DNA of 64,000 nt from an uncultured Enterobacteriaceae bacterium (GCA_964441775.1 CAYTVL010000005.1:160395-224394); one strand, 5' to 3'. Shown: positions 3,401-52,059, counted from the stretch's first letter. The notes: generated by a model not told the origin, from the letters alone. Translations and numbers: made by a program.

Positions 3401-3865
<465 letters not shown>

Positions 3866-3916
3866 TTTATCAACGCAGATGAAGAGTCGCATTTCAGTGA
3901 AGGAGGATCGTAGGGT

Positions 3917-5329: not shown

Positions 5330-5356
5330 TCGTCTGCCACAGAACTGATCTCCGAG

Positions 5357-5392
5357 AGGGGGGAAGAGGAAACTCTTCCCCCCTTTTCTTTT
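5357..5392 (+). terminator. rho-independent terminator after glnA
   Basis: GGGGGGAAGAG-GAAA-CTCTTCCCCCC perfect 11-bp stem followed by TTTTCTTTTC. Confidence 0.75.
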
Positions 5393-5506
5393 CTAGAGGC
5401 TGGAGGTATACCTCCTCAGGCCCTTTACAGAGGAAAGAAGCGAGAGGAATTCCTACAGTGGGCCAAACGGTATCGGCTCACCTCGGCACGATAAGGAGAA
5501 CGCAGT

Positions 5507-6439: not shown

Positions 6440-6567
6440 CCTCCCACCCCACAGGAACATCTCCTGCGGTCTTATGGGTGGGGGGCAGGCAGACATGGAT
6501 TTGGTGTGGGGGAGGCGGTAGTATAACCTCTCTCCACCCGCCCGTTTTTATTTTTTAGAAAACTATC

Positions 6568-13608: not shown

Positions 13609-16275
13609 ATGACAAGTTTCACTGCCTTAGATGAAACGACTGAGCAACGAAGTCTCGTCCTTTTCCAGGAGCATCAGCAAAAGATTTTCAAGCGGACGGA
13701 TCGGTTATTTGCCTGCCTGTTGCTGTTTCAGTGGTGCGCCGGCATTGCTGCCGCGTATTGGCTTTCTCCGCTGACGTGGACTGGCGTCTACAGTCAAACC
13801 CATTTACACGTCAAGGCCGCGTGGATACTCGGTGGCGGGATCATCAGCTTTCCTGTTCTGTTAGCGTTCTTTCAGCCTGGAGCGCTATTAACCCGTCACA
13901 GCATTGCTATAGCCCAAATGCTCATGGGCGCTCTCCTCATTCACTTGACCGGCGGACGCATCGAGACGCATTTTCATGTCTTTGGTTCTCTTGCTTTTCT
14001 GGCTTTCTACCGAGATTGGCGGGTGCTAATCTCAGCCACGGTGGTGGTGGCTGCGGATCATTGTGTACGGGGCCTCTACTGGCCCCAGTCGGTCTTTGGC
14101 GTGTTGACGGCAAGCCCCTGGCGTTGGCTTGAGCATGCTGGGTGGGTGATTTTCGAGGATGTCTTTCTCCTCGCTTCCTGTATTCAAGGAGTGGAGGAAA
14201 TGCAGGAGATCGCTGAGCGACAAGCCCAGCTTGAGGCGAGCAATGATCATGTCCGTTCTCTTAGCGCTTCATCGCCGATCGGGGTTTTTCAAATCAACTC
14301 GGCAGGGAGCTGTAGCTACACGAATGACCGGTGGTATGAAATTGTCGGATTGACGACGGCGGAGAGCAGTCAAGCAAATTTGTCCACACTCATCCACTCC
14401 GAGGACCGCGAGGCCGTTCTTAAGGATTGGACACGGGCAGTGGCGACAAACCGTGAAGTCTCGGTTGAGTTTCGTCTCTTGAGGCGATCGGGAGGAATTC
14501 GTTGGGTCCGGGTTCGTGGCACGCCACTTCAGAGCGCTAATAAAAAGGGATTCGACGACTATGTCTGCACGATTGAAGACATTACCGCACAAAAGCATGC
14601 TGCTGAGGAGTTACGCGAGGCAAAAGAAGCCGCTGAGCAAGCCAGTCAAAGCAAATCGGCTTTCTTGGCGACCATGAGTCATGAGATCCGCACCCCGATG
14701 AATGGGGTGATTGGCATGACTGGACTCCTCCTTGACACCCCGCTGACCGAGGAACAACGCGACTATGCCGAGACCGTGCGGCACTCCGCCGACGCGTTGC
14801 TGACCATCATCAACGATATTCTCGACTTCTCCAAAATAGAGGCGGGCAAATTAGAATTGGAGATTATCGACTTCGATCTCCGCACTGCGGTCGAAGAAGC
14901 GGTCGATCTGTTCAGCAGCCAAGCCCTGCATAAAGGGCTAGAACTGGCGTGCTTAATTCACGCCGACGTCCCCGCCGCCCTGCGCGGCGACCCGGGTCGG
15001 GTCCGCCAGATCTTGGTGAATTTGATTGGGAACGCCATCAAGTTCACGGCGCAGGGAGAAGTGGTGGTCGAAGTACGAACAAGTAAGCCCGACTTCCTGT
15101 GCGGGAAAAATCTCACACCAGCGGCCTCTACCGAGCTGTCTACTCCTCTCACCTCGATACGGCTGTACTTTTCCGTGACCGACAATGGGATTGGTATCCC
15201 GGTCGACCGACGGGACCGGCTTTTTCAATCGTTCTCGCAAGTGGACGCGTCCACTACGCGCAAATATGGCGGCACAGGCCTGGGGTTAGTCATTTGTAAA
15301 AAACTCGCGGAGGTCATGCAGGGCGAAATTGGAGTAGAAAGCGAACCCGGCAAGGGCAGCACTTTCTGGTTTACTGTTCAACTTGAGCAACAGCCTCCAA
15401 AGACTGCCTCCGTGGAAGCGCTTGCTGATCTCCGAGGGATGCACGCGTTAATTGTGGATGACAACGCCACCAATCGGCGCATTTTTCGCCGCCAATTAGC
15501 CTCCTGGGGCGTTACCTCGGAGGAAGCTGCGGATAGCCCGCAAGCGCTCACCCTCTTACGAGAGGCGGTTGCTCAGGGACGTCGCTACGATTTCGCCTTC
15601 CTTGATTTCATGATGCCGTCCATGAACGGGATAGAATTAGGCCGCATGATCAAGGCCGACCCCTCCTTAGCTCACACGAAGTTGCTGCTTCTTACCTCTG
15701 CTGGACAACGGGGAGATGGACAGCTTGCACGCGAGGCAGGGCTTGATGGATACCTCACCAAACCCGTGCGGCAAACGCATTTGTGGGGATGTCTCACCAA
15801 AATCATGGGCGGTGTCTCTTCTGGAGAGTCCACGCCAACATCGCTCGTCACTCGCCACACGGTAGAGGAAAAAAAGACGCACAGTCGTTTACCCATCTTG
15901 ATTGCGGAGGATAATCCGGTCAACCAAAAATTGGCGGTGCGGTTATTAGAAAAATTGGGCTATCGCGCAGATGTCGCGGGCAACGGACTTGAGGCCGTTG
16001 CTGCGGTAGAATGCATTCCCTACGCTGCCATCCTTATGGACTGCCAAATGCCGGAAATGGATGGATTTGAAGCCACCAGAACTATTCGCGGCAGAGAGGA
16101 AGACACCACTACTCATATCCCTATCATTGCCATGACCGCCAACGCCATGCAGGGGGATAAAGAACGCTGCATGGAAGCGGGCATGGATGATTATGTCTCC
16201 AAACCGATCAAGCCGGAAACCTTGAAAACCGTCCTGGCCCAGTGGCTTGCCCCTATCAAGGAGAAGGCGGCATGA
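13609..16275 (+). CDS. hybrid sensor histidine kinase (multi-TM N-terminal sensor, PAS, HisKA, HATPase_c, two receiver domains)
   Basis: H-box [12 protein letters not shown]-box GNAIKFT, G-boxes DNGIGIP/GGTGLGL. REC1 ([12 protein letters not shown]...[11 protein letters not shown]) and REC2 ([12 protein letters not shown]...[12 protein letters not shown]). The N-terminal ~190 aa is polytopic, with a conserved-looking [19 protein letters not shown]...[13 protein letters not shown] segment. Confidence 0.85.
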
Positions 16276-28319: not shown

Positions 28320-29084
28320 TCATTGATTTCGTTCGTACAAGATACGCAATCCTTCCAACGTAAGATACTCGTCTACCTCTTCAATACTGACCGATTCGGC
28401 CGCGATCAATTTTGCGAATCCACCAGTGGCGATGATGCGCGCCCTGACTTTGTTTTCCCTTTGGATGCGATCAATCATACCGTCCACCAAGGCGGTATAG
28501 CCGAAAAAGATGCCGGACTGGATGGCGTGCACAGTGTTGCGACCAATCACTTTTGGCGGTTTGACGAATTCCACCCGGTATAGCTTGGCGGTCTTATGGA
28601 AGAGCGCGTCGAGCGATATCCCCACGCCCGGCACGATGGCGCCGCCAAGATACTCTCCGGCAGACGTCACGTAGTCGAACGTCGTCGCCGTACCGAAGTC
28701 GACCACAATCGTGACGTCACGAAAACGCTCGTAGGCAGCTACGGCGTTGACAATGCGATCCGCCCCGACTTCACGAGGATTATCGTAGAGAATCGGCATC
28801 CCGGTCTTGATGCCAGGCCCTACCACGAGAGGTTGCAGGCGAAAATACTTCTCCGCCAACTCCGCCATCACATTGGTCATGGGCGGCACCACGCATGACA
28901 CCACCATGCCTTCCACGGCGGAAAAATTCAGCTCAGAAGCAACGAACAGACTGCGCAGCAGGACGCCATATTCATCGGCGGTCCGCTCCGCTTCGGTTAA
29001 GAGACGCCAATGTCGGGTCAGCTTCTTTCCCTGATAGAGCCCGATCACGGTATGGGTGTTGCCTACATCAACGGCGAGGATCAT
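28320..29084 (-). CDS. coaX: type III pantothenate kinase
   Basis: MILAVDVGNTHT N-terminus and ...DFGTATTFD... ASKHA-fold CoaX motifs; 254 aa. Confidence 0.9.
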   Translation of the reverse strand: MILAVDVGNTHTVIGLYQGKKLTRHWRLLTEAERTADEYGVLLRSLFVASELNFSAVEGMVVSCVVPPMTNVMAELAEKYFRLQPLVVGPGIKTGMPILYDNPREVGADRIVNAVAAYERFRDVTIVVDFGTATTFDYVTSAGEYLGGAIVPGVGISLDALFHKTAKLYRVEFVKPPKVIGRNTVHAIQSGIFFGYTALVDGMIDRIQRENKVRARIIATGGFAKLIAAESVSIEEVDEYLTLEGLRILYERNQ

Positions 29085-29923
29085 GCTTTTTCTCCACGCG
29101 CATAGCCTCCGACCACGGTCACGTCTCCAGCAAGTACGCGCCGCGGCGTTCCATCATTCTCATCTCGAAGCAAAAGCGCGCCATCACTATCTAGCCCTAG
29201 CACCGTGCCCACAAGGGTTCCCTCTGGCGCCGCAACGGTAATGGACTTGCCTATCAGCGCAGCGGCGTGACGCTCCCACGCAGGTCGGATAGCCAAGAAG
29301 CCTTGTTCTAGCCATAGAACATACAATTTCTCAAGATGGGTCAGCAAAGCCGCAGTAAACGTAGCACGGTCGAGTAGGCGTCCACCGAGCAGAAATAAGG
29401 AAGACGCTTTGTCGTGCAACTCTGGCGGAAACGCTGTGAGCGGGGCATTGATGTTGACGCCAATGCCGAGCACGACTGACCGCAGAGCGCCAGCTTCGGT
29501 CTGCATTTCGGCGAGGATGCCGCAGACTTTTTTCCCGTCCACGAGCACATCATTGGGCCATTTAATGGCGGGCGTAAGGTCACTGACTTCAGAGATCGCC
29601 TCTGCTACAGCGACAGCCGCAAGGAGGTTCAACTGTGGCGCGACCGCCGTCGCAACCGACGGACGCAAAATCAGCGACACATACAGATTCACACCCGCAG
29701 GCGACACCCAACTCCGCCCCAGGCGTCCTTTGCCGCCAGTTTGCTCATCGGCAATGACGACGGTTCCCGCCGGGGCCCCTTCACGAGCAAGTTGGGCGGC
29801 GTACACGTTGGTGGAATCAATCGTTGGAAAAAAATGCAGGGGTCTACCAAGGAACTGAGTAGTAAGCAGTTGAGAGAGTGCGTCAGCGAAAGTTTGGCTG
29901 GGAGGTTCGGCAGCGTCACTCAT
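29081..29923 (-). CDS. birA: biotin--[acetyl-CoA-carboxylase] ligase (group I, no HTH)
   Basis: GGKGRLGRSW biotin-binding loop and KWPNDVLVDGKKVCGILAE. The ATG at 29923 (GGAG 9 nt upstream) is preferred to the GTG at 29932. Overlaps the coaX start by 4 nt. Confidence 0.85.
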   Translation of the reverse strand: MSDAAEPPSQTFADALSQLLTTQFLGRPLHFFPTIDSTNVYAAQLAREGAPAGTVVIADEQTGGKGRLGRSWVSPAGVNLYVSLILRPSVATAVAPQLNLLAAVAVAEAISEVSDLTPAIKWPNDVLVDGKKVCGILAEMQTEAGALRSVVLGIGVNINAPLTAFPPELHDKASSLFLLGGRLLDRATFTAALLTHLEKLYVLWLEQGFLAIRPAWERHAAALIGKSITVAAPEGTLVGTVLGLDSDGALLLRDENDGTPRRVLAGDVTVVGGYARGEKA

Positions 29924-29942: not shown

Positions 29943-30839
29943 TTAACTTGAGACTTGGCCCCTGGAACCTGGAACCTGAAACTTGGAACTTTGGGCTTCC
30001 ACAGCGATCGCCATGCTCAGGTCCACGGCTGAAACAGAATGCGTCAACGCCCCAATCGAGATGAAATCCACCCCGGTTTCCGCTACTTCTCGGACGCGAT
30101 CGATACTCATGTTGCCGGACGCCTCCAGCAAGGCGCGACCATGTACGAACTGCACCGCCTCACGCATCTGCAGGGTGGACATATTGTCAAGCAGAATAAT
30201 ATCAGCCTGCGCTTCGACTGCTTCTTGCACTTCACTCAGAGTGGTGCATTCAACCTCTATACGAAGTAATGCGGAAACCCGCCGCCGCGCCAACCGTACT
30301 GCTGTTCCAACTCCGCCACAGACGGCGATATGATTATCTTTGATGAGAACACCGTCGTCCAAGCCCATGCGATGGTTCATACCGCCGCCCTGAGTCACGG
30401 CGTATTTATCGAGCAAACGAAACCCAGGCGCCGTCTTGCGCGTATCGATAATCTTGCACTGCGTCCCCGCGATCGCCTCAACAAATTGCCGCGCCAGCGT
30501 CGCTATACCAGACAAGCGCTGGAGGAAATTCAAAAGCGTGCGCTCCGCGATCAATAACGAGGCGGCATTGCCCCATAGCTCGACGACAACTTCCCCCTTT
30601 TTTACAGAGCTGCCTTCAGACTTAAGGAGTCGCGCATCAGCGTCGGCGCTCACCGCTTTCAGCACCATGTCCACCAGAGGCAACCCCGCGATGGTGAGAT
30701 CGGCTTTCGCCGTGATCTTCCCCTGTGCAGTGCAATCCGGCGGAATGGTCGCTAAGGTCGTCACATCGCCGCGACCGAGATCTTCTTCCAGCGCGGTCGC
30801 AATCAGGCGGGATACTGAGGGATGATCGAAGGGGTGCAT
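29943..30839 (-). CDS. nadC: nicotinate-nucleotide diphosphorylase (carboxylating) / quinolinate phosphoribosyltransferase, with a repeat-derived C-terminal extension
   Basis: N-terminal alpha/beta domain and TIM-barrel motifs (DTRKTAPG, ILLDNM). The last ~15 aa (SSKFQVPGSRGQVSS) are encoded by the heptamer repeat tract. Confidence 0.9.
   Translation of the reverse strand: MHPFDHPSVSRLIATALEEDLGRGDVTTLATIPPDCTAQGKITAKADLTIAGLPLVDMVLKAVSADADARLLKSEGSSVKKGEVVVELWGNAASLLIAERTLLNFLQRLSGIATLARQFVEAIAGTQCKIIDTRKTAPGFRLLDKYAVTQGGGMNHRMGLDDGVLIKDNHIAVCGGVGTAVRLARRRVSALLRIEVECTTLSEVQEAVEAQADIILLDNMSTLQMREAVQFVHGRALLEASGNMSIDRVREVAETGVDFISIGALTHSVSAVDLSMAIAVEAQSSKFQVPGSRGQVSS
29962..29996. repeat. degenerate heptanucleotide tandem repeat CTGGAAC CTGGAAC CTGAAAC TTGGAAC TTTGGGC at the 3' end of nadC
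   Basis: Direct reading. It is the same unit as the perfect (GGAACCT)5 tract inside valS. Confidence 0.8.
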
Positions 30840-30979
30840 ATTGAGTAGCCAGTAGTCAGTAGGTAAAACAATGAAGAATTAAAAATGCAAAATGAAGAAT
30901 GAACAACATGTATTTTGTTTTCAATTTCTAATTTTTCATTCTTACTTTTTAATTGGTCTTGCCATGCTGACTACTTCTT

Positions 30980-33640
30980 TCATGCTTCAATTTGCCTTAA
31001 TCGTTCCAAACTTCTTTGTAAGCTCTGCTGCTTTTCTTCGAGCTGCGCAGCGCGGTCACGTTCTTTCTCTACCACTTCTTCTGGGGCTCGGTCGATAAAT
31101 TTGGCGTCTCCTAATTTTCTTTGGACGCCAGCCATCTCGTTCGTCACTTTCCCAATTTCTTTTTCCAAGCGCTTTGTCTCTTCTGTCAAATTCACGAGTC
31201 CCGCCAACGGCACGTGCACCTCCGCACCATCTACCACAGCCAACGCCGCGCCGCGTGGTCGCTCGCCCTCCTGCTGATAACGCAGCTCACCCACCCGCGC
31301 GAGACGCCGCACGAACCCCTCATGCGTACGCAACTGAGTTTCTATCGTACCTGCCTTGGGAATAATAATCGCGGTGAGTTCTTGCGAAGGCGGCAAATTC
31401 ATTTCCGAGCGGATGTTTCGGATGGAACGAATAACGTCCATGACGAGGGTCATGCGCTGCTCCGCCTCCTCGTCTATCCATGCCGCGTCGACCTGAGGAA
31501 ACGCTTGCACCATGATACTGTCATGCTTGCGGCCTTCGTCCAGAGCGTGCCAAATCTCTTCGGAGATGAAGGGCATCACTGGATGTAGCAGCCGCATGAT
31601 CGTGTCTAACACCGTCGCCAGCACTGCTCTCGTGCGCTCTTGCTCCGCGACATCCTTGCTGTCCAACGAAATTTTGCTCAGCTCCAGATACCAATCACAG
31701 AACTCGTGCCATGTGAACTGATACAGCGCCGCCGCCACTTCATTGAAACGATACTCGTCCAACGCTTGCCTGACTTCTGTAACAGTCTTCTGTAACCGCG
31801 ACAAAATCCACCGAGCCGCTAAACTGAGATTTTCCTTGGAACCTGGAACCTGGAACCTGGAACCTGGAACCTGGTTCATGAGGACGAACCGAGCCGCGTT
31901 CCACACCTTATTGGCAAAATTGCGATAGCCAGTAATGCGGTCTGTCGACAGGCGAATATCACGGCCCATCGCGGACATCGCCGTCAACGTGAAGCGCAGA
32001 GCGTCCGTGCCGTATGCTTCCATGATGCTGAGCGGATCGATCACATTGCCTTTGGTTTTCGACATCTTCTGCCCTTGTTCATCGCGAACCAGAGCGTGAA
32101 TATAGATGTGGCGAAACGGCACGTCGCCCATGAACTTCAGGCCCAACATCATCATGCGCGCCACCCAAAAAAAGATAATGTCGAAACCCGTCACCAGTAC
32201 GGAGGTGGGATAGTACGTCTTGAGATCCTCGGTCTGATCCGGCCACCCCATCGTCGAGAAGGGCCAGAGCCCCGAGCTGAACCAGGTATCAAGCACATCC
32301 GTCTCTTGCGTCAGGTTTTTGGAGCCGCACTTCGTGCAGGCAGTGACTTCATCACGCGCCACGATCATCTCGCTGCATTCACCGCAGTACCACGCTGGAA
32401 TGCGATGGCCCCACCAGAGTTGACGCGAGATACACCAGTCGCGGATGTTCTCCATCCACGTAAAATAGGTCTTCTCCCAATGCGTTGGAAAAAACTGCGT
32501 GCGTCCGTCTTTCACCGCCGCCAACGCCACGTCCGCCAGCGGCTTGATGCGCACGAACCACTGATTGGAAAGAAACGGCTCGACCACTGTCTGACAACGG
32601 TAACAGTGGCCCAGCATAATTTTGTAGGGCTCGGTTTTGACCAGCACACCGGACTGCTGCAAATCCTCAACTAAGCGTTTCCGGCAATCGTAACGGTCCA
32701 TGCCAGCATAAGGCCCAGCCTCATTCGTCATGCGGGCCTGTTCATCCAGTACAGAAATGGACGGCAACGCATGCGTTTTACCAATGTCAAAATCGGTGAA
32801 ATCGTGCGCCGGCGTCACTTTCAGTGCGCCCGTGCCAAACTCTTTATCGACACGCAGGTCAGCAATGATCGGAATTTCACGTCCCAGCACTGGCAGCTTT
32901 AGCGTCTTGCCGACCCAGTCACGGTAGCGCTCGTCCTCTGGATGCACGGCCACCGCCGTATCACCCAGCATCGTCTCGGGGCGCGTGGTTGCAATCGTCA
33001 CCGCCCCAGCGCCGTCGCTGCGCGGGTACGAGAGATGATAGAGAAACCCTTCGCTCTCCTTCGGCTCAACTTCCAGATCAGAGAGCGCGGTCTCACAACG
33101 CGGGCACCAATTGATCAAATAGCGTCCGCGATAAATCAGCCCTTCGTCATAGAGCTGAACAAACACCTCACGCACGGCGCGTGACAGGCCGGCGTCCATC
33201 GTGAACCGTTCGCGCGACCAGTCGCAGGACACGCCCAGGGCTTTGAGTTGATTGACGATGTGACCACCCGACTCATCGCGCCACGTCCACACCCGCTCGA
33301 CAAATTTCTCTCGCCCAAGCTGCCAACGGTCCAGGCCCTGCTGCTGCAACTGCCGCTCCACCACGTTCTGGGTCGCGATCCCCGCATGATCTGTCCCCGG
33401 CACCCACAACACTTTAAAGCCATCCATGCGCTTGTAGCGGCACAGAATGTCTTGCAGTGTATTGTTTAGAGCGTGCCCCATGTGGAGCGAGCCGGTGATA
33501 TTAGGTGGTGGGATAACGATGGAGAAGGGTTGTCCATGCGGGTGCTTTTCCGGACGAAAGAAGCCGCCCTCCATCCAAAACGGGAACCAGCGTTTTTCAA
33601 CGGCAGTAGGATCGTATGTTTTTGCAAGCGCCATAGTCAT
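30980..33640 (-). CDS. valS: valine--tRNA ligase
   Basis: HIGH (PPNITGSLHMGHA) and KMSKS (KMSKTKGN) motifs, CP1 editing domain, anticodon-binding domain and C-terminal coiled coil; ~885 aa. The start is ATG 33640 or 33634. Confidence 0.95.
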   Translation of the reverse strand: MTMALAKTYDPTAVEKRWFPFWMEGGFFRPEKHPHGQPFSIVIPPPNITGSLHMGHALNNTLQDILCRYKRMDGFKVLWVPGTDHAGIATQNVVERQLQQQGLDRWQLGREKFVERVWTWRDESGGHIVNQLKALGVSCDWSRERFTMDAGLSRAVREVFVQLYDEGLIYRGRYLINWCPRCETALSDLEVEPKESEGFLYHLSYPRSDGAGAVTIATTRPETMLGDTAVAVHPEDERYRDWVGKTLKLPVLGREIPIIADLRVDKEFGTGALKVTPAHDFTDFDIGKTHALPSISVLDEQARMTNEAGPYAGMDRYDCRKRLVEDLQQSGVLVKTEPYKIMLGHCYRCQTVVEPFLSNQWFVRIKPLADVALAAVKDGRTQFFPTHWEKTYFTWMENIRDWCISRQLWWGHRIPAWYCGECSEMIVARDEVTACTKCGSKNLTQETDVLDTWFSSGLWPFSTMGWPDQTEDLKTYYPTSVLVTGFDIIFFWVARMMMLGLKFMGDVPFRHIYIHALVRDEQGQKMSKTKGNVIDPLSIMEAYGTDALRFTLTAMSAMGRDIRLSTDRITGYRNFANKVWNAARFVLMNQVPGSRFQVPGSKENLSLAARWILSRLQKTVTEVRQALDEYRFNEVAAALYQFTWHEFCDWYLELSKISLDSKDVAEQERTRAVLATVLDTIMRLLHPVMPFISEEIWHALDEGRKHDSIMVQAFPQVDAAWIDEEAEQRMTLVMDVIRSIRNIRSEMNLPPSQELTAIIIPKAGTIETQLRTHEGFVRRLARVGELRYQQEGERPRGAALAVVDGAEVHVPLAGLVNLTEETKRLEKEIGKVTNEMAGVQRKLGDAKFIDRAPEEVVEKERDRAAQLEEKQQSLQRSLERLRQIEA
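31838..31872. repeat. perfect heptanucleotide tandem repeat (GGAACCT)x5, plus a degenerate sixth unit, in frame inside valS
   Basis: Five exact 7-nt units at 31838-31872. The minus-strand translation gives QVPGSRFQVPGSK, lying between the conserved ValS segments FVLMN and LSLAARWIL. Confidence 0.9.
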
Positions 33641-33690
33641 CAATACAAAAGGGGCCCCGTCTCTCGGCGAGAACAGAACCCCTTAGGTTA

Positions 33691-42923: not shown

Positions 42924-44912
42924 TCAAGGAAGAGCGGCATGGGTTGCGAAAGTATAGCCCAACTTCTCGAAGTCGACGCTTGGATGATCCAGGCCGGACG
43001 CTTGGCCCGAATAGTAGAGCACCCAGGGCAGACCAGGGAAGGTAAACGCCTCAGCGCGGCGCAAGCGCTCTCGATAATTCGCATGCAGCCCCCGGTGCGC
43101 CTCCGGATCTACGAAGCGATAAAAGAAGGTTTGCCACCAGTCGGCTGGCGTCGAAATGGAAAACCCGCGATAGAGGGGGAAGCTCTGGTAGGCTTCCGCC
43201 ATCATCACTCGGCGTGATTCAATGAGTTGTTGTTGGTCGTGCACAGCCTGCGCGAAAAAAGGCGTGAGTGTTTCCAGTGGCGGGTGGACCTGGGCGACAG
43301 AAGTCGCCACTTCCTCCCGAGCGATGCGCGTAGACAGTAAAGCGGCCCACTGTTTTGCGTCGGTCTCCGTCAGCGGCGCCCCACTGGTAAGCCCAGCCTG
43401 CTGAAGCCCTCGCCAGGACAACGGATCGGTTTCTTCAATCACGCAACACACCAACTCCAAGAACACGATATCCCGGTCATAGGCGTCGAGAAATTCCTTG
43501 CGGACCGAGGCGATACTTTGAAATGGCAAGCCAGTATAGAACGTGAGCGGCAAGTGATCGTTAGGAGTCGTGTAGAATTTTGTCCCAGGCCGAAACTTCG
43601 TCTGCTGTAAATACGCCACCAGCGGACGAAAATCATTCACCACGGTCCCACTTTGCACCGTTCCGCCCACATGTCCCACTCGGTTCGCCCCAAAGAGAAA
43701 CAGCAACAACAACACTGGGGCGACCATGCTTTGCTGAGAGAAACCGCAGAGGCGCGTCACACTCGCCATCAGGAGAGCGGCAAGCAACACGCAAGGAGGA
43801 AGTAGTTGCAGGGAGAGGCGCGTAAAAAAGAAACTCGCCGCGGGAACGAAAAGCAAGAAGACGAGCGCGGCCAGAAAAATCCACGCGCAGAGAAATACTA
43901 CGGCGCGTTGGTAGAGCAAAAAATCTATTCGAAGAGATTCGGGTAACTGTTGACGCCAGACCCTGAGCCCCACTCCCCACAAAAGGCCCGCTCCATACAA
44001 AGCGACAAAGGCCTTGTGGTCGACAAGATAAAGGATGAGATCATCGGGCAAGGAGAGAAAAGGCCACGCGCGCGGAATAAACGTGCTCTGCTCAAGAAAG
44101 CCTGTCCACAGCACCCAGGGCGCGACACCAAGGCCCACAAGGAGACCAAACACTGCACTCTTGACGAGGCCCTGCCGATGGCGCAGCAGAAAGGGAAGCA
44201 GGAGACTCCATAACACGCTCAACGTCACGAACGACAAGAGCTGAGTATGAAATAACAAGACAAAGGCGAATCCTCCACAGATAAAATCCCGCCAGCGCCC
44301 ACGTCGTAGCATACCCCAGGCCAAGAAACCACAGACACTGCTCAACGCCAGAGTGGCCGAGTAGTAACGCGCTTGCCGCCCCATCCAGACTAAAGAATCG
44401 AGAAACGCCCCAGCCGCCAGCGCGGTCCACGCCGCGTCCTTTCCGAAGAAAACACGACCGCACGCAAACAGCATCAACATAGTGACCACAGAGAAAACAA
44501 GGGAAGGAAGACGCGCCACCATCGTGCGCCGGGCGCCCTCCGCTAAATCGTGCTTCACTCGCGCTTGGTCCTGGGGGTCATCAGGCTCCACTCCCCACAG
44601 CGCAAAGGAAGCCGCAATCGAATACAGCGGCAACCAGCCGTGGTACACCGCTATCCCACGATCCGAGTAGCTGAGATCTTTAAACGCATACTCACGGCTT
44701 TCCGGCCACGGGCGCAGCAGGGTATTTTCGTACAAAGGAAGGCCAAGGTACTGATCGGTCGGGTATCCATGCTGAAGAATCGTCAGCGCGTTAATACTCG
44801 ACTCCGCCTCATCCTCCCACAGGAGCGGAGACCTCAAGTTCCAGGCTCTGAAAAAGAGACCACCGGCGAGGATCAACAACAGTAAGAGCCGTTCGCCACG
44901 AGGGGAGAGCAT
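42924..44912 (-). CDS. PMT_2/ArnT-like polytopic glycosyltransferase (GT39/GT83-like, polyprenol-phosphate-sugar dependent)
   Basis: ~12 TM helices with a periplasmic-loop DE motif (LLWEDEAESS) in the first loop and a large C-terminal soluble domain. The start is uncertain (44912 vs 44987). Confidence 0.6.
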   Translation of the reverse strand: MLSPRGERLLLLLILAGGLFFRAWNLRSPLLWEDEAESSINALTILQHGYPTDQYLGLPLYENTLLRPWPESREYAFKDLSYSDRGIAVYHGWLPLYSIAASFALWGVEPDDPQDQARVKHDLAEGARRTMVARLPSLVFSVVTMLMLFACGRVFFGKDAAWTALAAGAFLDSLVWMGRQARYYSATLALSSVCGFLAWGMLRRGRWRDFICGGFAFVLLFHTQLLSFVTLSVLWSLLLPFLLRHRQGLVKSAVFGLLVGLGVAPWVLWTGFLEQSTFIPRAWPFLSLPDDLILYLVDHKAFVALYGAGLLWGVGLRVWRQQLPESLRIDFLLYQRAVVFLCAWIFLAALVFLLFVPAASFFFTRLSLQLLPPCVLLAALLMASVTRLCGFSQQSMVAPVLLLLFLFGANRVGHVGGTVQSGTVVNDFRPLVAYLQQTKFRPGTKFYTTPNDHLPLTFYTGLPFQSIASVRKEFLDAYDRDIVFLELVCCVIEETDPLSWRGLQQAGLTSGAPLTETDAKQWAALLSTRIAREEVATSVAQVHPPLETLTPFFAQAVHDQQQLIESRRVMMAEAYQSFPLYRGFSISTPADWWQTFFYRFVDPEAHRGLHANYRERLRRAEAFTFPGLPWVLYYSGQASGLDHPSVDFEKLGYTFATHAALP

Positions 44913-44938
44913 ATCGCGATCGCTTGTTCGTCTTTTCG

Positions 44939-47155
44939 TCACCAGGGTCGCTCCGGAGCTACGCGACCGCCGTGCGTCTCCTGCCATGCTTTCCGCATCA
45001 GGATGGCAATGGCGCGCGATTCCTCAGCTTTTGCTTGCCGCTCGGGATCGCGGCTATGTACGTGACGCAGCGCACGAACGGCATGCCAGACGGTCTCTAG
45101 ACTTCGCGCAAGCCACGCACAGCACACTCCGTGATGTTTATAGTAATAGAGCAGCGCGCTGCGCATGCGCCACAACATCAGTTGCGAGCCCGAGGACGCC
45201 AGGGTCAAGTGCTTCACAGTTTTGGAGGACTCACCGCCAAGATGCACGACCACCACATCCGGCCAGTACCAAACCTTGTGTCCTGCAGCACGAATGCGGC
45301 GGCACAGATCGACCTCTTCATAGTAAAGAAAAAACCGTTCGTCAAAATGCCCAACTTGTTCGAGGACCGCGCGACGGATGATGGCGAACGCGCCCGGCGT
45401 CCACTCCACCGCCGCGGGCTGCAACGGATCAGCCCAGGTACGGTCCACTCGCCCAAAGAATCGTGAGCGTGGGAATTTCGCGGCTAAGCCGGAAAGCGCG
45501 AGGAAATCATTCAAAGGTGAAGGAAACAGTCGCGCCGAGGGCTGCCAGGAATCATCCCTCCCAACCAACCGCGCCCCAGCAAGCCCCACGTGCGGCGCTG
45601 CGTCCATGTGTGTCACGGCGCGCCTCAAGGCGCCCGGGCGTGGAAATGCATCCGAATTCAGCAACACGAGGTAACGCCCCTGCGCCGCCGCGAAGGCGCA
45701 ATTATTCGCCGCCGCAAAGCCGAGGTTTTCTTGACTACGGATCAGCCGCACCCAGGGAAACGAGGAGGCAACCATCTCCGGCGATCCGTCATTCGAAGCA
45801 TTGTCTACAACAATGACTTCATAAGAAACGCCAACCGCTTCTCGTTGCACGGTTAACAAACATTCGCGGAGCAGCTCGCGGGTATTGAACGAGACAACGA
45901 CGATTGAGGCGTCTAACGCTTCGTCGGACTTCGGGGACGACAGTGGAGGCGCGGTGCGTGGCGTGCGCACCCACGCCGCATCCGGTCGAGCGGTACGCAA
46001 CAGCGCTGGAATCAAAGTGAGCTTCCACAACAAATACACCGGCGCGGTCACCAGGGCAGCCGCATCGCTCCAGGTGCCGCCGCAGGTTGCCAACGCCACG
46101 AGCACATGCCCGCTCACCAGGCTGAGACCGATGAGTGCATACGCTTGGAGAGCTGCGATGGGCGTTATCAACGCAGCGAGGAGCAGCGCGGCATGAAAGG
46201 CCAGAGGCAACAACAGCAGCTCCAACAAAGGTTCAACGAGGCGCCAACGTCCTTGGAGAATCTCGCGGCCCAGCGGCAAGGCCATATCGCGGAGCACCCG
46301 CAGTCGCCCGCCCTCCCAACGCGTCCGTTGGGTGACCATACCGGCGCCGCGCGCGGGCATCTCCGCCCATACAGTCGTGGCGTCGACAAAGCGCACCTTT
46401 CGTCCAGCGCGCACGAGCCGTAGATGATACTCCAAGTCTTCCACCACCGACCGCACCGTATAAGGAACGGCCAGCAAGGTCTCTTTTGTCAAGACAAAGC
46501 CGTTTCCCAAAATCCCCGCCGAATAGCCCCAATAGTCACGGCCACGCGGACGCAGCACGTTAAACGCCAACAAGGCTACGCGCATGAGTCGCGTGCGGGA
46601 GGAGTCCGTCGCATTGTGTACGAGGTAGCGCACCTGCACGGCGTCGGCGCCTTCCGCCAGTAGACGACGGCACTCTACGAGAAAATTCGTCTCGACAACC
46701 GTGTCAGCATCAACCACTGCGTACGCGTCCCACGGCTCTGTCAACAATTGCTCAAAGGCAAAGGCCAGGGCGCATCCTTTCCCCCGTTGCTGGAGATCCT
46801 GCCGGATCAACACACGGGCGCCGGCAGCGCGCGCGCGTTCGGCGGTGGCGTCCGTACAATTGTCGGCCACGACAACAATGCCGGAGGGGTCAGCTTTCTC
46901 GCACGCCAGCAGGCTCTGCACACAGCGTTGGATCAAGACTTCTTCGTTATGCGCAGGGACGACAACGGCGAGACGCAGCGGCGGGGTCTCTCGCGACGGA
47001 GATCCATCAGACGCGCGGGGCGCTCGGAATCGCCATAGCAGTCCGCCCCACGTCACGAGCAGCAACTCGCATGCCCCAGGAAGGGTGAGCAGAATTACGA
47101 CTAACCCACTCACACTCTCCATCACTGTCCAAAGCGTTTCACTCATACGCATCAC
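44939..47155 (-). CDS. bifunctional glycosyltransferase with two GT2 (GT-A) domains separated by a TM region
   Basis: GT2 domain 1 (LAVVVPAHNEE...VVADNCTD...VVDADT) and GT2 domain 2 (IVVVSFNTRELL...VIVVDNASNDGS...LNSDAF). Confidence 0.75.
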   Translation of the reverse strand: MMRMSETLWTVMESVSGLVVILLTLPGACELLLVTWGGLLWRFRAPRASDGSPSRETPPLRLAVVVPAHNEEVLIQRCVQSLLACEKADPSGIVVVADNCTDATAERARAAGARVLIRQDLQQRGKGCALAFAFEQLLTEPWDAYAVVDADTVVETNFLVECRRLLAEGADAVQVRYLVHNATDSSRTRLMRVALLAFNVLRPRGRDYWGYSAGILGNGFVLTKETLLAVPYTVRSVVEDLEYHLRLVRAGRKVRFVDATTVWAEMPARGAGMVTQRTRWEGGRLRVLRDMALPLGREILQGRWRLVEPLLELLLLPLAFHAALLLAALITPIAALQAYALIGLSLVSGHVLVALATCGGTWSDAAALVTAPVYLLWKLTLIPALLRTARPDAAWVRTPRTAPPLSSPKSDEALDASIVVVSFNTRELLRECLLTVQREAVGVSYEVIVVDNASNDGSPEMVASSFPWVRLIRSQENLGFAAANNCAFAAAQGRYLVLLNSDAFPRPGALRRAVTHMDAAPHVGLAGARLVGRDDSWQPSARLFPSPLNDFLALSGLAAKFPRSRFFGRVDRTWADPLQPAAVEWTPGAFAIIRRAVLEQVGHFDERFFLYYEEVDLCRRIRAAGHKVWYWPDVVVVHLGGESSKTVKHLTLASSGSQLMLWRMRSALLYYYKHHGVCCAWLARSLETVWHAVRALRHVHSRDPERQAKAEESRAIAILMRKAWQETHGGRVAPERPW

Positions 47156-47162
47156 TCTCGCA

Positions 47163-49382
47163 TCATTGACTTTCCCCCAAAGGCGGCAGCACCACCAATC
47201 CCCAAGCTGGAAGATTGATTGACACCTCAGTACCCTTGGCGATCACCGGCTCTTCGAGTATGCGCACTTCTTCAAGCGTTTCATTAGTCGCTTCGGGACT
47301 TGTCGCAGCAAGCCGTAACAAGCGTCGCGGCAACGAATCAATCGCCACCGATGGGAATTGCATGGTAACGGTGCGAGGGTACGAGACGGCGGACACCAAC
47401 GCCGCAGCCCAGCCCGCCGGAGAATGAAACACACTGACGGTGAGATCCGTCAGGGGCCGCCCTTCAAGGTCGCGCACAACGTGAAGATCCCCAGCCGTTA
47501 CCTTATTGAGCATCTCTAACGCCAAGCCGGTCGGACGAAATCGCCGGGTCGCGCCTAAGTCGCGCACGATACCCCAGAGTTTGGTAAACCCTGGAACCGT
47601 ACTCAGCTTGGTGTCGTAGCCAGCCAGGACGTACACGCATTGTCGTCGCGCTCCTAACACTAACGAGTCCAATAACCGCTTCGCCAACGCGCTTCCCGCC
47701 GCCGCGCCTGCAGTGATCCGATCGCGCTCGCTGGGAGGAGAGTCACCGCCCAAAGTATGGAGGTTGACTTCCGCAAGCGCCAGGTCCTTGCCCACTTGCC
47801 GCACTCCATCGGTCAACGTTTGCATCCGCCCTTCATCCCCTTGAAACAAGAGCGGTAGATTCGCTTGCATCAATCGTCCCGCTGGCAACTCGGATAAAAA
47901 GTAAGGAGCCACCGCCAACATCTCCGCCGTGGGCGTCTTTTTGATAAAATCAAGCGCATACGAAGGGTTGGCGTGTTGCCCATTCACGACAGTGCGAAGC
48001 GGGACGCCCGCTCCAGCCCCCTCACGTATTTTGCGAAAGGCGCGATCCGCCGCCGCTCCATGCGCTTGGGTGTTGGAGATGCCGCCGGGCCGGAAGATCG
48101 CGTTCCAATTCTCATTGCCAAATTCAACAAGAATTTCTGCAAAATGATCGGACGCCTGTCGCTGAGCGAGAAAACGACCCAGGCCAACCAACTCTTCATC
48201 ACCGAAGGTTGTTGGCACGATGAGCCAAGGACGCGCGTCAATCCGGCGACACAGGTCAAGAAACTCGGGCAACGAGTACCCGTAGTCAGCGCTATCCAAT
48301 CCTTCCGGACGATAACGTGAAGCGCGGCGCGCAAATGGCTCAGCTAGTCGATTTTCCAGCGTGTCTCCCAGTTGCCCTTGCCAATCGCGCAAATAGCCGG
48401 GTCGGAGCCGTTTCAGGGCGGCAATCACTTCCGGACGAAAGGCGCTTGGCGCACTCTGCCCCGCCAAGTCAGGTACCGGTCCAAGTTCGACATCATCAAC
48501 AAGGATGCGGCCCTGGACATCGGAGGTGCGAAAGCGCAGTTCAAGGACTGCCGCGCCAGAGTCAGTGGCGGAGAACGCAAATTCATATTGCTTCCACTCG
48601 CGCAGGGGCCGCACAACTTGAGAGACGAAAGGGGCAACGCCTTGGCGGCGAAACTCCACGTTCAAGGTCGGATCACCATCATCCAGCCGACACCAGAAGC
48701 GGAGCCGCCAAGCCCCGGAGACAGCCAGTAAACTCCCGGCGCGGTCGCTCATGGTGTCGAGATAGGACGCAATTTCCGCTGGACGTTGAGGAAGCGCGTG
48801 CAACGCTAGAGCGCGACGCCCAGGGCTTCCGGGGCGCGTCTGCCCTACGATCGTCGACACCTGGCCTCTCCCTTCTTGCGGCGTCCACCAATGCGTGGGC
48901 GGCAAGGAGTCGGTCTGGCGAGACAAGGCAATGACGTTACCGGGCTCTAGCACAGGAACCTCATCTTCGGAAATAAACTCCGGCAGTCCACCGCGCCCCA
49001 CGCGTCGAGAATCCCCCAAACGCCCGACATGGCCCGCTGAAGGACCAGTCCGCACCTCATAGCGCGCCCCGGCCCAAAACCCGTCGGGGCGCGCCAGCCA
49101 TGCGGTATCGTCAGTGAAACGCTGCTTGTCCGCTCCTTGCACGAGGACAATGGCCCGATCATCGACCCCTTCGAAGCCGGGGTTCTTCAAAACATTCGCC
49201 ATGAGTTGCTCGGCGCCCCAGGTCGTCCAGACCCCAAGATTCACGCCGAAACGTTGCACATCTTTTACCGTAATCGTCGGTTCAACCTGGATATGGAAAG
49301 ACTCCTCAGCCGCTGACATGCGCACGGACGCTAATGCGAGCACGCCCAACAGAACACGAAAGTATCGCGCCCCGCTCTCCAT
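47163..49382 (-). CDS. secreted TIM-barrel glycoside hydrolase-like protein (clan GH-A-like, PslG/arabinofuranosidase-like) with beta-sandwich domains
   Basis: Signal peptide; NPGFEG near the N-terminus; EFGNENWN resembles the NEP/GNE acid/base motif of GH-A enzymes. Family not assignable by eye. Confidence 0.4.
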   Translation of the reverse strand: MESGARYFRVLLGVLALASVRMSAAEESFHIQVEPTITVKDVQRFGVNLGVWTTWGAEQLMANVLKNPGFEGVDDRAIVLVQGADKQRFTDDTAWLARPDGFWAGARYEVRTGPSAGHVGRLGDSRRVGRGGLPEFISEDEVPVLEPGNVIALSRQTDSLPPTHWWTPQEGRGQVSTIVGQTRPGSPGRRALALHALPQRPAEIASYLDTMSDRAGSLLAVSGAWRLRFWCRLDDGDPTLNVEFRRQGVAPFVSQVVRPLREWKQYEFAFSATDSGAAVLELRFRTSDVQGRILVDDVELGPVPDLAGQSAPSAFRPEVIAALKRLRPGYLRDWQGQLGDTLENRLAEPFARRASRYRPEGLDSADYGYSLPEFLDLCRRIDARPWLIVPTTFGDEELVGLGRFLAQRQASDHFAEILVEFGNENWNAIFRPGGISNTQAHGAAADRAFRKIREGAGAGVPLRTVVNGQHANPSYALDFIKKTPTAEMLAVAPYFLSELPAGRLMQANLPLLFQGDEGRMQTLTDGVRQVGKDLALAEVNLHTLGGDSPPSERDRITAGAAAGSALAKRLLDSLVLGARRQCVYVLAGYDTKLSTVPGFTKLWGIVRDLGATRRFRPTGLALEMLNKVTAGDLHVVRDLEGRPLTDLTVSVFHSPAGWAAALVSAVSYPRTVTMQFPSVAIDSLPRRLLRLAATSPEATNETLEEVRILEEPVIAKGTEVSINLPAWGLVVLPPLGESQ

Positions 49383-50665
49383 CAGGCTCCTCTGATGCGC
49401 TGCTGAAAAATCTCGGCCAACCGTGCGGTATTGCGTTGCAGATCGTACCGCTCCAGGATCCTTCGGCGGCCCGCGCCGCCTAAACGCAGGCGCAAGGCGG
49501 GGTCGTCCATCAGTCGGATGAGCGCCCCGGTGAGAGCTTCCTCGTCCCCAGGCGCCACCAAGAGGCCCTCACGCTCATGACGAATCAATTCAGGAATGCC
49601 AGCAATCCACGTTGTCACACAGGGAATTTCCCTCGCCATAGCCTCCATCAGCACCACTGGAATCCCCTCCGCGAAGCTGGGCAATACAAAAATGTCAGCG
49701 GCGTCGTAAAAAATGCGGAGCTGATCTTGATTCACCGCCCCGGCGAACTCAACCTGTTGACATAATCCGCGCCTCGCCGTCTCCGCTTCAAGCTGGTCCC
49801 GACCGGGACCAGCACCAACAAAACGGAGGCGCACGTTACGTCCCGCTTGCACCAACTGCTGGCAGGCGGCAAGAAGCACGGCCTGACCTTTGACCGGGAC
49901 AAGTCGGCCCACGCAGAGGATCTCGAAGGGCGCGGAGTGACTCCGAAAAGGGCGTGGAGCAAAGACAGAAAGATCAACACCCAAGGGCGACACTGCAAAT
50001 TTCGGCCATAGCGACGGAGGGGACAAGCTCATCAATTGACTGCGTGCATACGACCCAATACAGCAAATGAAAGACGCCCCGGCGATTTTTTCCGCGAGTC
50101 GATGACCGGACACGTCGAAGAATTCGTCGGGTCCATGCACGGTCAGAGAAAACGTGAGCGGGAAGATGCGCGCGGCAATGAGCGCCACCGTTGCGGCCGG
50201 GGTAGCAAAATGCACGTGTACGTGGGTGAGTCGCCTCGCGTTCATCCATTGGCCAAGCAACACCGCTTCACCAAAATAAAAAAGATTCCAGAGCAGCTTG
50301 CGGAGATCCACGCCTCCCAAACGCAGCGCCGCCCAGAGCCCGCGCCCATATGCCTGCGGTCGGCGGCAAAGCGTCGTGACATGCGCGCGCACGAGAGCAA
50401 CAATGTCGACTTGCTTCACGACATAGGTGCACGCCGCTTCTTCTCGCTCTTCTTGGGTCATGGCGGCGTGCGGTCGATCCGCGGGATTGATGGAGGCGAC
50501 GTGAATCTCGTGCCCCATCGCACGTAGGCCTCGGACCTCGCGGAGAATGAACGTATGCGAGACTGCGGGATACTGGCTAACAAGATAGGCCAGGCGCAGG
50601 AAATGTTCCTGCTTGTCAGAAAAATGAGAGACCGGCAGCGAAGAAACCGCCGAGGGTGGTTTCAT
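49382..50665 (-). CDS. GT4 glycosyltransferase (WcaL/AmsK-like)
   Basis: N-terminus YLVSQYPAVSHTFILREV and C-terminal GT-B EX7E region (FVLPSFAEGIPVVLMEAMA). ATGA overlap with the upstream gene. Confidence 0.8.
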   Translation of the reverse strand: MKPPSAVSSLPVSHFSDKQEHFLRLAYLVSQYPAVSHTFILREVRGLRAMGHEIHVASINPADRPHAAMTQEEREEAACTYVVKQVDIVALVRAHVTTLCRRPQAYGRGLWAALRLGGVDLRKLLWNLFYFGEAVLLGQWMNARRLTHVHVHFATPAATVALIAARIFPLTFSLTVHGPDEFFDVSGHRLAEKIAGASFICCIGSYARSQLMSLSPPSLWPKFAVSPLGVDLSVFAPRPFRSHSAPFEILCVGRLVPVKGQAVLLAACQQLVQAGRNVRLRFVGAGPGRDQLEAETARRGLCQQVEFAGAVNQDQLRIFYDAADIFVLPSFAEGIPVVLMEAMAREIPCVTTWIAGIPELIRHEREGLLVAPGDEEALTGALIRLMDDPALRLRLGGAGRRRILERYDLQRNTARLAEIFQQRIRGA

Positions 50666-52008
50666 GACATCACCCGTTGAAAACGAAAAAGCGGCGCCAA
50701 CGGCGCTGGAGCCGCTACGGTCGTCTCCGCGAGCTGTCCACTACGCATCTTCAGCAAGAGTCCTTCGGACCACCCCGTGAGAAAAAAGAAGAGCTGTACG
50801 GTCTGTGCGCCGAGGTACACGGACGTCAAGGTTGCGGCAATGACCACGTACGAGGCAAAGAAAGTGAGCGCGAGTTCGCTCTCGGGCGATCCACGGGGAG
50901 CACGCACGCCGAATCGGCACAATCGTGTCCCAGTCCAAAAAAAGATCGCCAGGAAAAATCCCAGCGCCACCAGGCCATGCTGAATCGGCAGTAGGAGATA
51001 CTGATTATCGATGGAATCCATGCTGGATACGCGCGGCCAGGTGTTATGCCCCCACCCCCAGTCAGATTTCCGCCACATGACATCGACGTATTTTTCGAGC
51101 AGCTCTCTGCGGTAGGCAATGGTCTCTTGGGCGTCAGATACGGCTTTTGAGCGTTTGACGGACAGGTAGCCTTTCATGGCTAACAGCGCTGGCGCGAGGA
51201 TCAGTACACAGAGCATTAGGACCGCTCCTATCGCGCGCTTGCGGTTTTTCGCCCGCGTGATCAGCAGCACGACGGCGCCACATCCCGCCCCGATCCAGGG
51301 TCCACGACACATCGTCATGAATAAGCCGCCAGCCAAGCCTAACGAAATGCGCCGCGCCTTTTGCGGCGTTTCCCAGTGTTTGCCCCACTCCAACCATCGC
51401 TGCAACCGGAAGCCAACGGCGAAGATTAGCCCGGCAAGAATGGCGTGCCCATACGGTCCAGCAATACGCGCAAAGCCCCACCGGAAGGTCGTGACCCAAT
51501 TGAGTTGGCCGGGGAAAAAGCGCGCCAAGAGCCCCGCATAGGGGTTCCACGCCATTTTGAATTCGTAGACAGAGGTCACGGCGACCACGCATAAAAGCAA
51601 CACCACGCGCTTGGCTGTCGCCACCCGCATGTTATGCGGCTCGATGATTCCCTTCGCCAAGATATACACACACGCCACACTACAGACTTGGTCGAACATG
51701 AGATTCTGCGCGTCGGCATAGCCGAGGTTTACATATTCGGAGTAGCCGATGCTTACCGCATACCCCACGACAAGCACGTCGCTCAGCGAAAAGCGCCACC
51801 GCGCCCCTTTGGCGAGGAAAGCCACAAGCAGCGGCAGAATGGCGGCATGATGAAAATTCGGATCGGGCAGCCCGGGCGCTACCCAGCGATAATAATCCGG
51901 CAGCAACAAAAGCGTCGGCAGATAGACGTTAAGGAACACCGTCGCCGTCGACTGCACGAACAGGCACGCCAACACGAGAAGGCCGGGGACAAGCGCCAAG
52001 ATTTGCAT
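50662..52008 (-). CDS. O-antigen ligase/polymerase (Wzy/WaaL-like) polytopic membrane protein
   Basis: ~11 TM helices with a large periplasmic loop containing conserved-looking R/H residues (GFARIAGPYGHAILAG). Confidence 0.55.
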   Translation of the reverse strand: MQILALVPGLLVLACLFVQSTATVFLNVYLPTLLLLPDYYRWVAPGLPDPNFHHAAILPLLVAFLAKGARWRFSLSDVLVVGYAVSIGYSEYVNLGYADAQNLMFDQVCSVACVYILAKGIIEPHNMRVATAKRVVLLLCVVAVTSVYEFKMAWNPYAGLLARFFPGQLNWVTTFRWGFARIAGPYGHAILAGLIFAVGFRLQRWLEWGKHWETPQKARRISLGLAGGLFMTMCRGPWIGAGCGAVVLLITRAKNRKRAIGAVLMLCVLILAPALLAMKGYLSVKRSKAVSDAQETIAYRRELLEKYVDVMWRKSDWGWGHNTWPRVSSMDSIDNQYLLLPIQHGLVALGFFLAIFFWTGTRLCRFGVRAPRGSPESELALTFFASYVVIAATLTSVYLGAQTVQLFFFLTGWSEGLLLKMRSGQLAETTVAAPAPLAPLFRFQRVMS

Positions 52009-52059
52009 ACGAAGCCTACCCAAGCAGGGACTGGATGGTTGTTGACATGAGAGACATTG

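Follow-up and report, generated by a model that had tools for sequence, protein, structure and literature searches.

A heptanucleotide array at the end of nadC in an uncultured bacterium, and the probable place of slippage in simple-sequence repeats at conserved sites of Binatia genomes

Tandem families of heptamers occur at many loci per genome in heterocystous cyanobacteria, where they are called STRR (short tandemly repeated repetitive) sequences and have no known mechanism or function. More generally, no class of long simple-sequence repeats (LSSRs) is as abundant in many prokaryotic genomes as that of the heptanucleotides, and polymerase slippage has been proposed to explain them (Mrazek 2007, as cited in PMC4679880 and PMC4692102). 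Genome-specific heptamer families have been described in Xanthomonas (GGGAATC) and in Nostoc PCC 7120 (GGGGAYT) by Rehm et al. (2015, PMC4692102), where the STRR are cited as three repetitive heptanucleotides of Calothrix PCC 7601. Direct repeats of TAACTGA are found in marine Beggiatoaceae, in cyanobacteria and in Bacteroidetes (MacGregor 2015, PMC4679880), and four-copy elements of GGGACCG lie at 49 sites between and within the genes of Geobacter metallireducens (Aklujkar et al. 2009, PMC2700814). According to a preprint, heptamer repeats affect the expression of recF and recO in Nostoc (10.1101/2022.06.06.494920). We analyse here a degenerate heptanucleotide array which forms the 3' end of nadC, the gene of quinolinate phosphoribosyltransferase (QPRTase), in a stretch of 64,000 nucleotides from an uncultured bacterium (GCA_964441775.1 CAYTVL010000005.1:160395-224394, hereafter the window), together with a perfect array of the same unit in the neighbouring gene valS.

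The array constitutes the last 53 nt of nadC (positions 29943-29995, minus strand) and was characterised by direct reading of the sequence, by TRF (Tandem Repeats Finder), with a probe and by a scan of lag identities. Read in the sense of the gene, from 29995 to 29943, it is CCCAAAG TTCCAAG TTTCAGG TTCCAGG TTCCAGG GGCCAAG TCTCAAG TTAA, the TAA stop codon (29945-29943) being inside the final unit. A first-pass annotation of this DNA, made from the sequence alone, had read five units on the plus strand, CTGGAAC CTGGAAC CTGAAAC TTGGAAC TTTGGGC, and these are found exactly at 29962-29996. It was also right in placing the array over the end of nadC and its stop codon, but it gave the span as 29950-30000 and missed about 2.5 further units toward the stop codon. 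TRF describes the nadC end in two rows, 29945-29991 (period 7, 6.7 copies, 75% matches) and 29961-29989 (4.1 copies, 86% matches). The second array, (GGTTCCA)x5.4 with 100% matches in TRF, is located within valS at 31837-31874 on the minus strand. The core unit GGTTCCA is common to both arrays and stands on the same strand in both, which is the sense strand of the two minus-strand genes; on this point TRF and the probe agree with the annotation.

A two-unit probe allowing at most 2 mismatches gives 8 matches in the 64-kb window, all of them within the nadC-end and valS arrays, when 0.39 are expected, and none of 100 shuffles reaches this number. The lag-identity scan for periods 6-11 over the whole 64 kb retains the nadC-end and valS segments only, and the word GGTTCCA is not enriched in the window outside the two arrays. 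As in LSSRs, a unit within the range of 5-11 nt is repeated head to tail beyond the length expected by chance. The features of a mobile element or of a miniature inverted-repeat transposable element are lacking: the two arrays share the heptamer alone, and their flanks are unique coding sequence. No transposase, reverse transcriptase, mobile or repeat-handling gene was seen near them, the neighbours examined being housekeeping or metabolic genes. Very-short-patch repair turning CTTGG into CCTGG within the unit was also considered and was dropped, as CCWGG occurs 146 times in the window against 139.5 expected.

The protein encoded by nadC (298 aa, 29943-30839, minus strand) is a QPRTase: Pfam recognises QRPTase_N (E = 9e-21) and QRPTase_C (E = 4e-61), and the best match in the PDB, 1X1O, covers residues 14-278 with E = 2e-76. 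Its C-terminus reads ...DLSMAIAVEAQSSKFQVPGSRGQVSS. Residues 281-298 (EAQSSKFQVPGSRGQVSS; 29946-29999, minus strand), encoded by the repeat, extend past the normal end of QPRTases, as the annotation had claimed: the Pfam domain QRPTase_C ends at residue 276, the alignments to 19 solved QPRTases reach no further than residues 276-281, and 18 residues are left beyond the fold. In an AlphaFold model computed from 34 orthologues, the last strand is formed by residues 274-280, while residues 284-298 have a predicted local distance difference test (pLDDT) value below 50 and no secondary structure; on this model the 18-residue tail is predicted to be disordered. It is not a new domain, and a function of its own is improbable. 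An assembly error can be set aside, because the identical 298-aa protein is encoded by three independent assemblies, in a look-up that could find identical proteins only.

We then compared NadC with its 120 closest orthologues (76-100% identity), several of which bear the source names of Candidatus Binatia or of Deltaproteobacteria metagenome-assembled genomes (MAGs). Of these orthologues, 40 end four residues past the invariant DLSM, where the NadC of the window has 22 residues, that is 18 extra ones. At least 11 residues follow DLSM in 44 of the 120, and in the tails the identity at lag 7 is far above that at other lags (VQSSKFKVQSS, VPSSKFQVPS and VQGSQFKVQG are examples). The tail had been suspected to be specific to a lineage, and this is borne out, since neither the distant solved QPRTases nor the base form of the closest orthologues has it.

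The gene order valS-nadC-birA-coaX-fusA-...-ilvN-ilvC-psd-pssA-leuA is kept in related Binatia contigs (loci are given below as L numbers), so that the same sites can be followed from genome to genome. In most of the related loci a period-7 array comes directly after the conserved ...DLSMAIxTE, each time with its own unit. The nadC end carries a perfect (GTTCAAA)x5 in L124, (RTGCAAA)x5 in L125 and a perfect (AGTTCCA)x4.5 in L164, a NadC fragment 88% identical to ours; L127 has about 12 degenerate units, degenerate arrays are found in L126, L129, L161, L162, L165 and L196, a remnant of 1.5 units in L130, and no array in L128 and L163. In the genomes with a short NadC of 280 aa (L160, L194, L195), the array stands directly downstream of the stop codon, and in L165 the change of GTCCAA to GTCTAA makes a stop inside the array, which runs on past it. 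The copy number at this site, which is 0, 1.5, 3, 4.5, 5 or about 12 across the Binatia genomes, differs between close relatives, which is a signature expected of slippage.

A comparable picture is given by the valS loop, where the array is (GTTCAAG/GTTCAAC)x5 in L130, (AGTTTCG)x3.6 in L194, (CAGGTGA)x4.6 in L196 and (CRGGCAA)x4.7 in L126, and where L128 has none. Among the units seen at the nadC-birA junction or in the valS loop of the relatives are GTTCAAA, RTGCAAA, GTCCAAG, AGTTCCA, AGTTTCG and CAGGTGA. Period 7 predominates in the lineage, as in LSSRs: the Binatia loci give 42 TRF rows with period 7, against 10 with period 6, 14 with period 8 and 9 with period 9, and further arrays exist in L194, L195 and L196. 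Judged by the comparison of these sequences, the nadC-birA junction and the valS loop are evidently old microsatellite hot spots, whose position is conserved and whose unit turns over. As for the tail of NadC, it exists because the units, of the family RGTTYMR, contain no stop codon in the frame of nadC.

Some of these related loci deserve a description of their own. In L194, AGTTnnR-type heptamers are found at 4797-4821 (valS loop), 5692-5774 (valS-nadC spacer), 6624-6680 (nadC-birA spacer) and 16066-16100 (downstream of leuA), which makes it the clearest case of one unit family across the sites of a single genome. In L129, BREX-type defence genes (BrxC/PglY, BrxB, Eco57I-like) replace valS upstream of nadC at 1-5294, and an insert of 214 nt with a 21-nt direct repeat lies between nadC and birA at 6268-6481. 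In L196, an integrase, a ParE/PhD toxin-antitoxin pair and a PDDEXK gene are immediately upstream of valS (2719-7031), which suggests an integration hot spot beside the operon.

In the window, valS (887 aa, 30980-33643, minus strand) encodes a valyl-tRNA synthetase with the Pfam domains tRNA-synt_1, Anticodon_1 and Val_tRNA-synt_C. Its array encodes QVPGSRFQVPGS, in a variable loop that joins the catalytic core to the anticodon-binding domain; more precisely, the loop is situated between KVWNAARFVL and LAxRWILSRL, and the ValRS of T. thermophilus (1GAX) aligns with a gap there. When changes of copy number are simulated, the gain or loss of one unit truncates ValS, and that of three units keeps the frame. 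Two Logan contigs, L001 (1-31) and L002 (1-31), begin exactly inside this array. We rejected the idea that these breaks indicate many genomic copies: a perfect period-7 repeat of 38 nt is longer than k = 31 and therefore breaks the de Bruijn graph on its own. Between valS and nadC, the spacer (30840-30979, minus strand) folds into a long imperfect hairpin (-33.5 kcal/mol, z = -3.26), the arms of which are themselves period-7 arrays (AGTAGYC..., AATGAAR...; TRF rows 30844-30862 and 30870-30903). The spacer is a third array site of the region, with units unrelated to GGTTCCA, and inverted heptamer arrays with other units occur in the orthologous spacers of L126, L130 and L194.

The unit is not confined to the window, as the annotation had anticipated: (GGTTCCA)x3 is present in at least 120 stretches of reference genomes, mostly as arrays of 3-6 copies, and the matches listed include Bacteroidota, Planctomycetota, Acidobacteriota, Chloroflexota, Betaproteobacteria, Syntrophorhabdus, candidate phyla and others. 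Among these matches, the unit recurs at 2-3 separate loci in many MAGs of other phyla. Period 7 is again predominant in the GGTTCCA loci of other phyla, with 353 TRF rows against 54 for period 6 and 84 for period 8. We rejected the idea of GGTTCCA as a special, universally spread unit, its frequency in viral contigs being near that of two control heptamers of matched composition (11 loci of (GGTTCCA)x3, against 9 and 6). We concluded that any heptamer triplet is found far above chance. According to a rough classification by ORF (open reading frame) span, the 108 assessable (GGTTCCA)n arrays of other phyla are likely intergenic in 39 cases, at the 5' edge or in the leader of a long ORF in 30, within the last 30 codons in 9 and internal in 30. 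On this rough classification, the enrichment at the 3' ends of genes that the annotation had led one to look for does not appear, with 30 arrays at 5' ends or leaders against 9 at 3' ends; its idea that in-frame copies are tolerated in loops and termini is sustained, since elsewhere real proteins have them in loops, in linkers and at termini.

Arrays of this kind are read in frame in MetH, in the tail of a UbiD, in the linker of a GH57 branching enzyme, in a Ser/Thr kinase and in an FG-GAP protein. In the B12-dependent methionine synthase of L007, (GGTTCCA)n lies in the S-methyltransferase domain (4497-4521); the UbiD array of L020 (338-368) is in the C-terminal tail, the branching-enzyme array of L036 at 4639-4670, and that of L113 (722-746) in the kinase domain. 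In several genomes of other phyla, (GGTTCCA)n is followed within 30-180 nt by an array of its reverse complement (L023 5608-5691, L043 1532-1640, L053 5695-5748, L096 1494-1592, L099 2179-2380); these pairs are capable of forming hairpins, as are heptamers of Xanthomonas.

What process would account for these facts? We think that slippage probably drives a microsatellite through birth, homogenisation and decay at sites that tolerate it, and that the tail of NadC and the insert in the ValS loop are by-products. The nadC-birA junction of the Binatia lineage would be an old heptanucleotide simple-sequence repeat, a microsatellite resembling LSSRs or STRR. Slipped-strand mispairing during replication, which we infer, would make the array grow, shrink and become homogeneous in place, and point mutations would make it decay. 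The reading frame of nadC would extend into the array until some unit mutates to a stop codon, and the outcome would be a disordered C-terminal tail of a length varying by lineage, amounting to 18 extra residues here. The valS array would be an element of the same kind in a variable loop at the protein surface, and of its lengths only those that keep the frame would survive. That both arrays of the window consist of GGTTCCA would result from descent from a unit family common to the clade, and probably also from exchange, through conversion or template switching, between the valS and nadC arrays, which stand in direct orientation at a distance of 1.9 kb. This explanation is supported by the positional orthology of the arrays, by the turnover of their units, by the presence of the array on either side of the stop codon, by the disorder predicted for the tail, by the lack of RNA structure at the junction (z about 0 in six genomes) and by the absence of mobile genes among the neighbours examined. 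The predominance of period 7, the ordinary frequency of GGTTCCA in viral contigs and the lack of enrichment of the word outside the arrays speak for it as well.

Several facts weigh against it. First, the arrays of one genome tend to share their unit: the window has GGTTCCA twice, L127 has GTTTCAA twice and L194 has AGTTTCG-type units at three sites. When the valS and nadC arrays are paired genome by genome, the true pairing ranks 2nd of 120 assignments, for a sample of five genomes in which L196 is discordant (the metagenome scan gave about 9 close NadC relatives, mostly on short contigs). Such a ranking of sequences points only weakly to a sharing of units between the arrays of one genome. 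Moreover, among the separate arrays situated beyond 300 nt in the loci of other phyla, 7 have a unit 1 mismatch from GGTTCCA; for 89 control units this number averages 1.0 and never exceeds 5. Slippage within one array does not explain these neighbours. Second, neutral microsatellites are not expected to stay at three sites across 76-90% NadC identity. Third, it is surprising that a perfect five-copy heptamer is tolerated in an essential synthetase which a change of one unit truncates. Fourth, in every genome bearing the array, its end is 15-25 nt before the ATG of birA and abuts a conserved GGAG; this position is like that of the heptamer repeats for which a regulatory role has been proposed in Beggiatoaceae and Nostoc. 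The persistence of the sites, the adjacency to the Shine-Dalgarno sequence and the sharing of units therefore keep alive two other explanations, a cis-regulatory leader and a propagating or converting family.

According to the first of these, the array would be a cis-acting leader of birA, arrays in general would be sites of post-transcriptional control, and the NadC tail would again be a by-product. The unstructured periodic RNA might serve as a stand-by site of the ribosome, or be bound by a protein with affinity for single-stranded RNA, for example S1, a cold-shock protein or a CsrA-like protein, and so couple the translation of birA to that of nadC. In the window, birA (biotin protein ligase, 280 aa, 29081-29923, minus strand, from the gene call) has its ATG at 29923-29921 and its Shine-Dalgarno sequence GGAG at 29935-29932. 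The array adjoins this GGAG, and 21 nt separate its end from the start codon. The constancy of this arrangement in every genome having the array speaks in favour of a leader, as do the overlap of the nadC ORF with the birA start by 4-17 nt in three genomes and the maintenance of an array at the site across the clade despite the turnover of its sequence. A conserved RNA structure at the junction was tried and rejected, z being between -0.42 and +0.41 in six genomes; a junction no more structured than shuffled sequence (z about 0) suits an unstructured leader. Elsewhere, 30 of the 108 (GGTTCCA)n arrays of other phyla are at the 5' edge or in the leader of long ORFs and 39 are likely intergenic, TAACTGA repeats stand within a few nucleotides of start codons (PMC4679880), and the Nostoc heptamer repeats altered recF and recO expression in reporter assays (bioRxiv 10.1101/2022.06.06.494920). 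However, the unit differs between genomes, and a binding factor must therefore either co-evolve with it or read the periodicity alone; no candidate factor was identified. The valS array is deep in its gene, with no start codon near. Finally, L128 and L163 have no junction array and L130 retains a remnant of 1.5 units, yet the gene order is still kept in L128 and L130. All in all, a role as leader seems unlikely to us, if worth keeping in mind.

We judge quite unlikely the view of the first-pass annotation, namely that a family of micro-repeats propagates through the genome and settles where it is tolerated, nadC and valS being two of its landing sites; the propagation would be active, by ectopic conversion, template switching or a dedicated enzyme. 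What speaks for it is the identity of unit and strand in the two arrays of the window, the sharing of a unit within L194 and within L127, the rank of the true valS/nadC pairing, the MAGs with 2-3 separate GGTTCCA loci among the matches listed, the enrichment of related units at separate loci of other-phyla genomes and the precedent of G. metallireducens, where 49 sites, intergenic and intragenic, bear a single heptamer element (PMC2700814). But no new landing is needed, because both sites already hold arrays with other units in relatives; the two sites of L196 have unrelated units, and most arrays in the same other-phyla loci have units unrelated to GGTTCCA (89 of 118 at a distance of at least 3). 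In addition, the two control units tested in viral contigs are about as common there as GGTTCCA, the neighbours examined include no transposase, reverse transcriptase or gene of that sort, and the window holds just two arrays of this unit. As for the invasion of nadC which the annotation had read, a recent arrival of a repeat from elsewhere is contradicted by the presence of a junction array in most of the Binatia relatives examined, with a different unit in each. Nor can the nadC copy be said to be older than the valS copy, because the valS loop too has long been an array site (L126, L130, L194, L196); the degeneracy of the nadC array shows only that it was homogenised less recently.

There is a further idea, to which we would give a slim chance: that a sequence-specific process, co-evolving with the unit, retains the arrays in their places (valS loop, valS-nadC spacer, birA leader) and makes those of one genome resemble each other. 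The agent could be a DNA- or RNA-binding factor of a small post-transcriptional regulon, or a directed conversion or template switching between arrays. If true, such a process would account both for the persistence of the positions through unit turnover and for the sharing of units within a genome.

A contingency (phase-variable) locus, in which changes of copy number would switch the C-terminus of NadC or make a NadC-BirA fusion, is very improbable: 7 is not a multiple of 3, and in simulation the loss of one unit or the gain of two in the nadC array does give an in-frame NadC-BirA fusion of 583 aa, but among 10 orthologous loci only 6 have no stop in the birA frame across the array, the genes are housekeeping ones and not surface or restriction genes, slippage at nadC should be rare because it has only two perfect units, the protein is identical in three assemblies (for a look-up limited to identical proteins), and a change of one unit in valS is truncating and presumably lethal. 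The programmed or phase-variable fusion was judged incidental on the same count of 6 in 10.

Apart from the arrays, the window shows at 44001-56000 and 58001-60000 a run of minus-strand ORFs, with an unusually strong plus-strand AT skew of 0.14-0.29 and a G+C content of 0.58-0.61, above the rest of the window.

If slippage at tolerant sites is taken as the explanation, the locus shows a junction microsatellite making lineage-specific disordered tails and loop insertions in housekeeping enzymes. For annotation, this means that extra residues of this kind are not a new domain, and that perfect arrays break short-read assemblies inside essential genes. In the literature searched we found no description of such heptamer arrays for Binatota, and the still unexplained excess of heptamer repeats is here extended to this uncultured phylum. 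The three neighbouring array sites in a conserved operon constitute a clean comparative system, in which one may ask why period 7 is favoured, why the sites outlive their sequence and whether arrays exchange sequence within a genome. These questions belong to the whole class of repeats and are not specific to the nadC locus.

It remains to compare these arrays with the described systems. They are like the LSSRs of Mrazek, Guo and Shah (2007, as described in PMC4679880 and PMC4692102) in being head-to-tail 7-nt arrays beyond chance length with period 7 predominant, and, as far as those accounts go, the LSSRs also lie mostly in spacers and at gene edges, are distributed sporadically in the phylogeny and have slippage as their proposed origin. 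The Binatia arrays differ from them in that they are followed at orthologous sites through an uncultured clade, and in that two of the three sites are in housekeeping coding sequence (the loop of the essential valS and the 3' end of nadC). With the repeats of Xanthomonas and Nostoc they have in common that arrays stand between the same genes in related species while varying strongly in length and sequence, and that some form inverted hairpin-capable pairs and some overlap ORFs (PMC4692102). However, the units of Xanthomonas and Nostoc are G-rich and form G-quadruplexes, which GGTTCCA and GTTCAAA cannot do, and one unit dominates each of those genomes, whereas the Binatia loci carry many.

The TAACTGA repeats are similar in forming arrays of 2-6 copies, commonly just upstream of start codons, some of which overlap the end of the upstream ORF or encode first or last residues, for instance of MurG or of a glycosyl hydrolase (PMC4679880); there too the word is not enriched outside arrays and the unit is found in distant phyla. 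The arrays of the window do not belong to that family, as their unit differs and the valS array is internal to a gene, although the position upstream of birA (15-25 nt) is similar. TAACTGA has stops in all three forward frames and so ends ORFs, whereas ORFs run through GGTTCCA because it contains no stop codon on either strand; and 169 sets of TAACTGA were counted in that genome, when here two arrays in 64 kb share a unit. The STRR differ in unit, in phylum and in their high copy number per genome: here the unit is GGTTCCA, the source names of the closest orthologues place the organism in Candidatus Binatia, and the 64-kb window has two arrays of the unit. The elements of G. metallireducens are again tandem arrays of about four copies of one heptamer, intergenic and intragenic; they differ by their unit GGGACCG, they have been proposed to be regulatory RNA, and they come without a comparison of orthologous sites. 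The contingency loci of host-adapted pathogens also contain an in-frame tandem repeat whose unit is not a multiple of three, so that a change of copy number shifts the frame. In our case, in contrast, the genes are housekeeping ones, no polymorphism was observed and the consequences of a copy-number change for the frame are not conserved between orthologues. The NadC tail is an ordinary example, from uncultured Binatia, of the heptamer simple-sequence repeats that had been described in several groups of bacteria.

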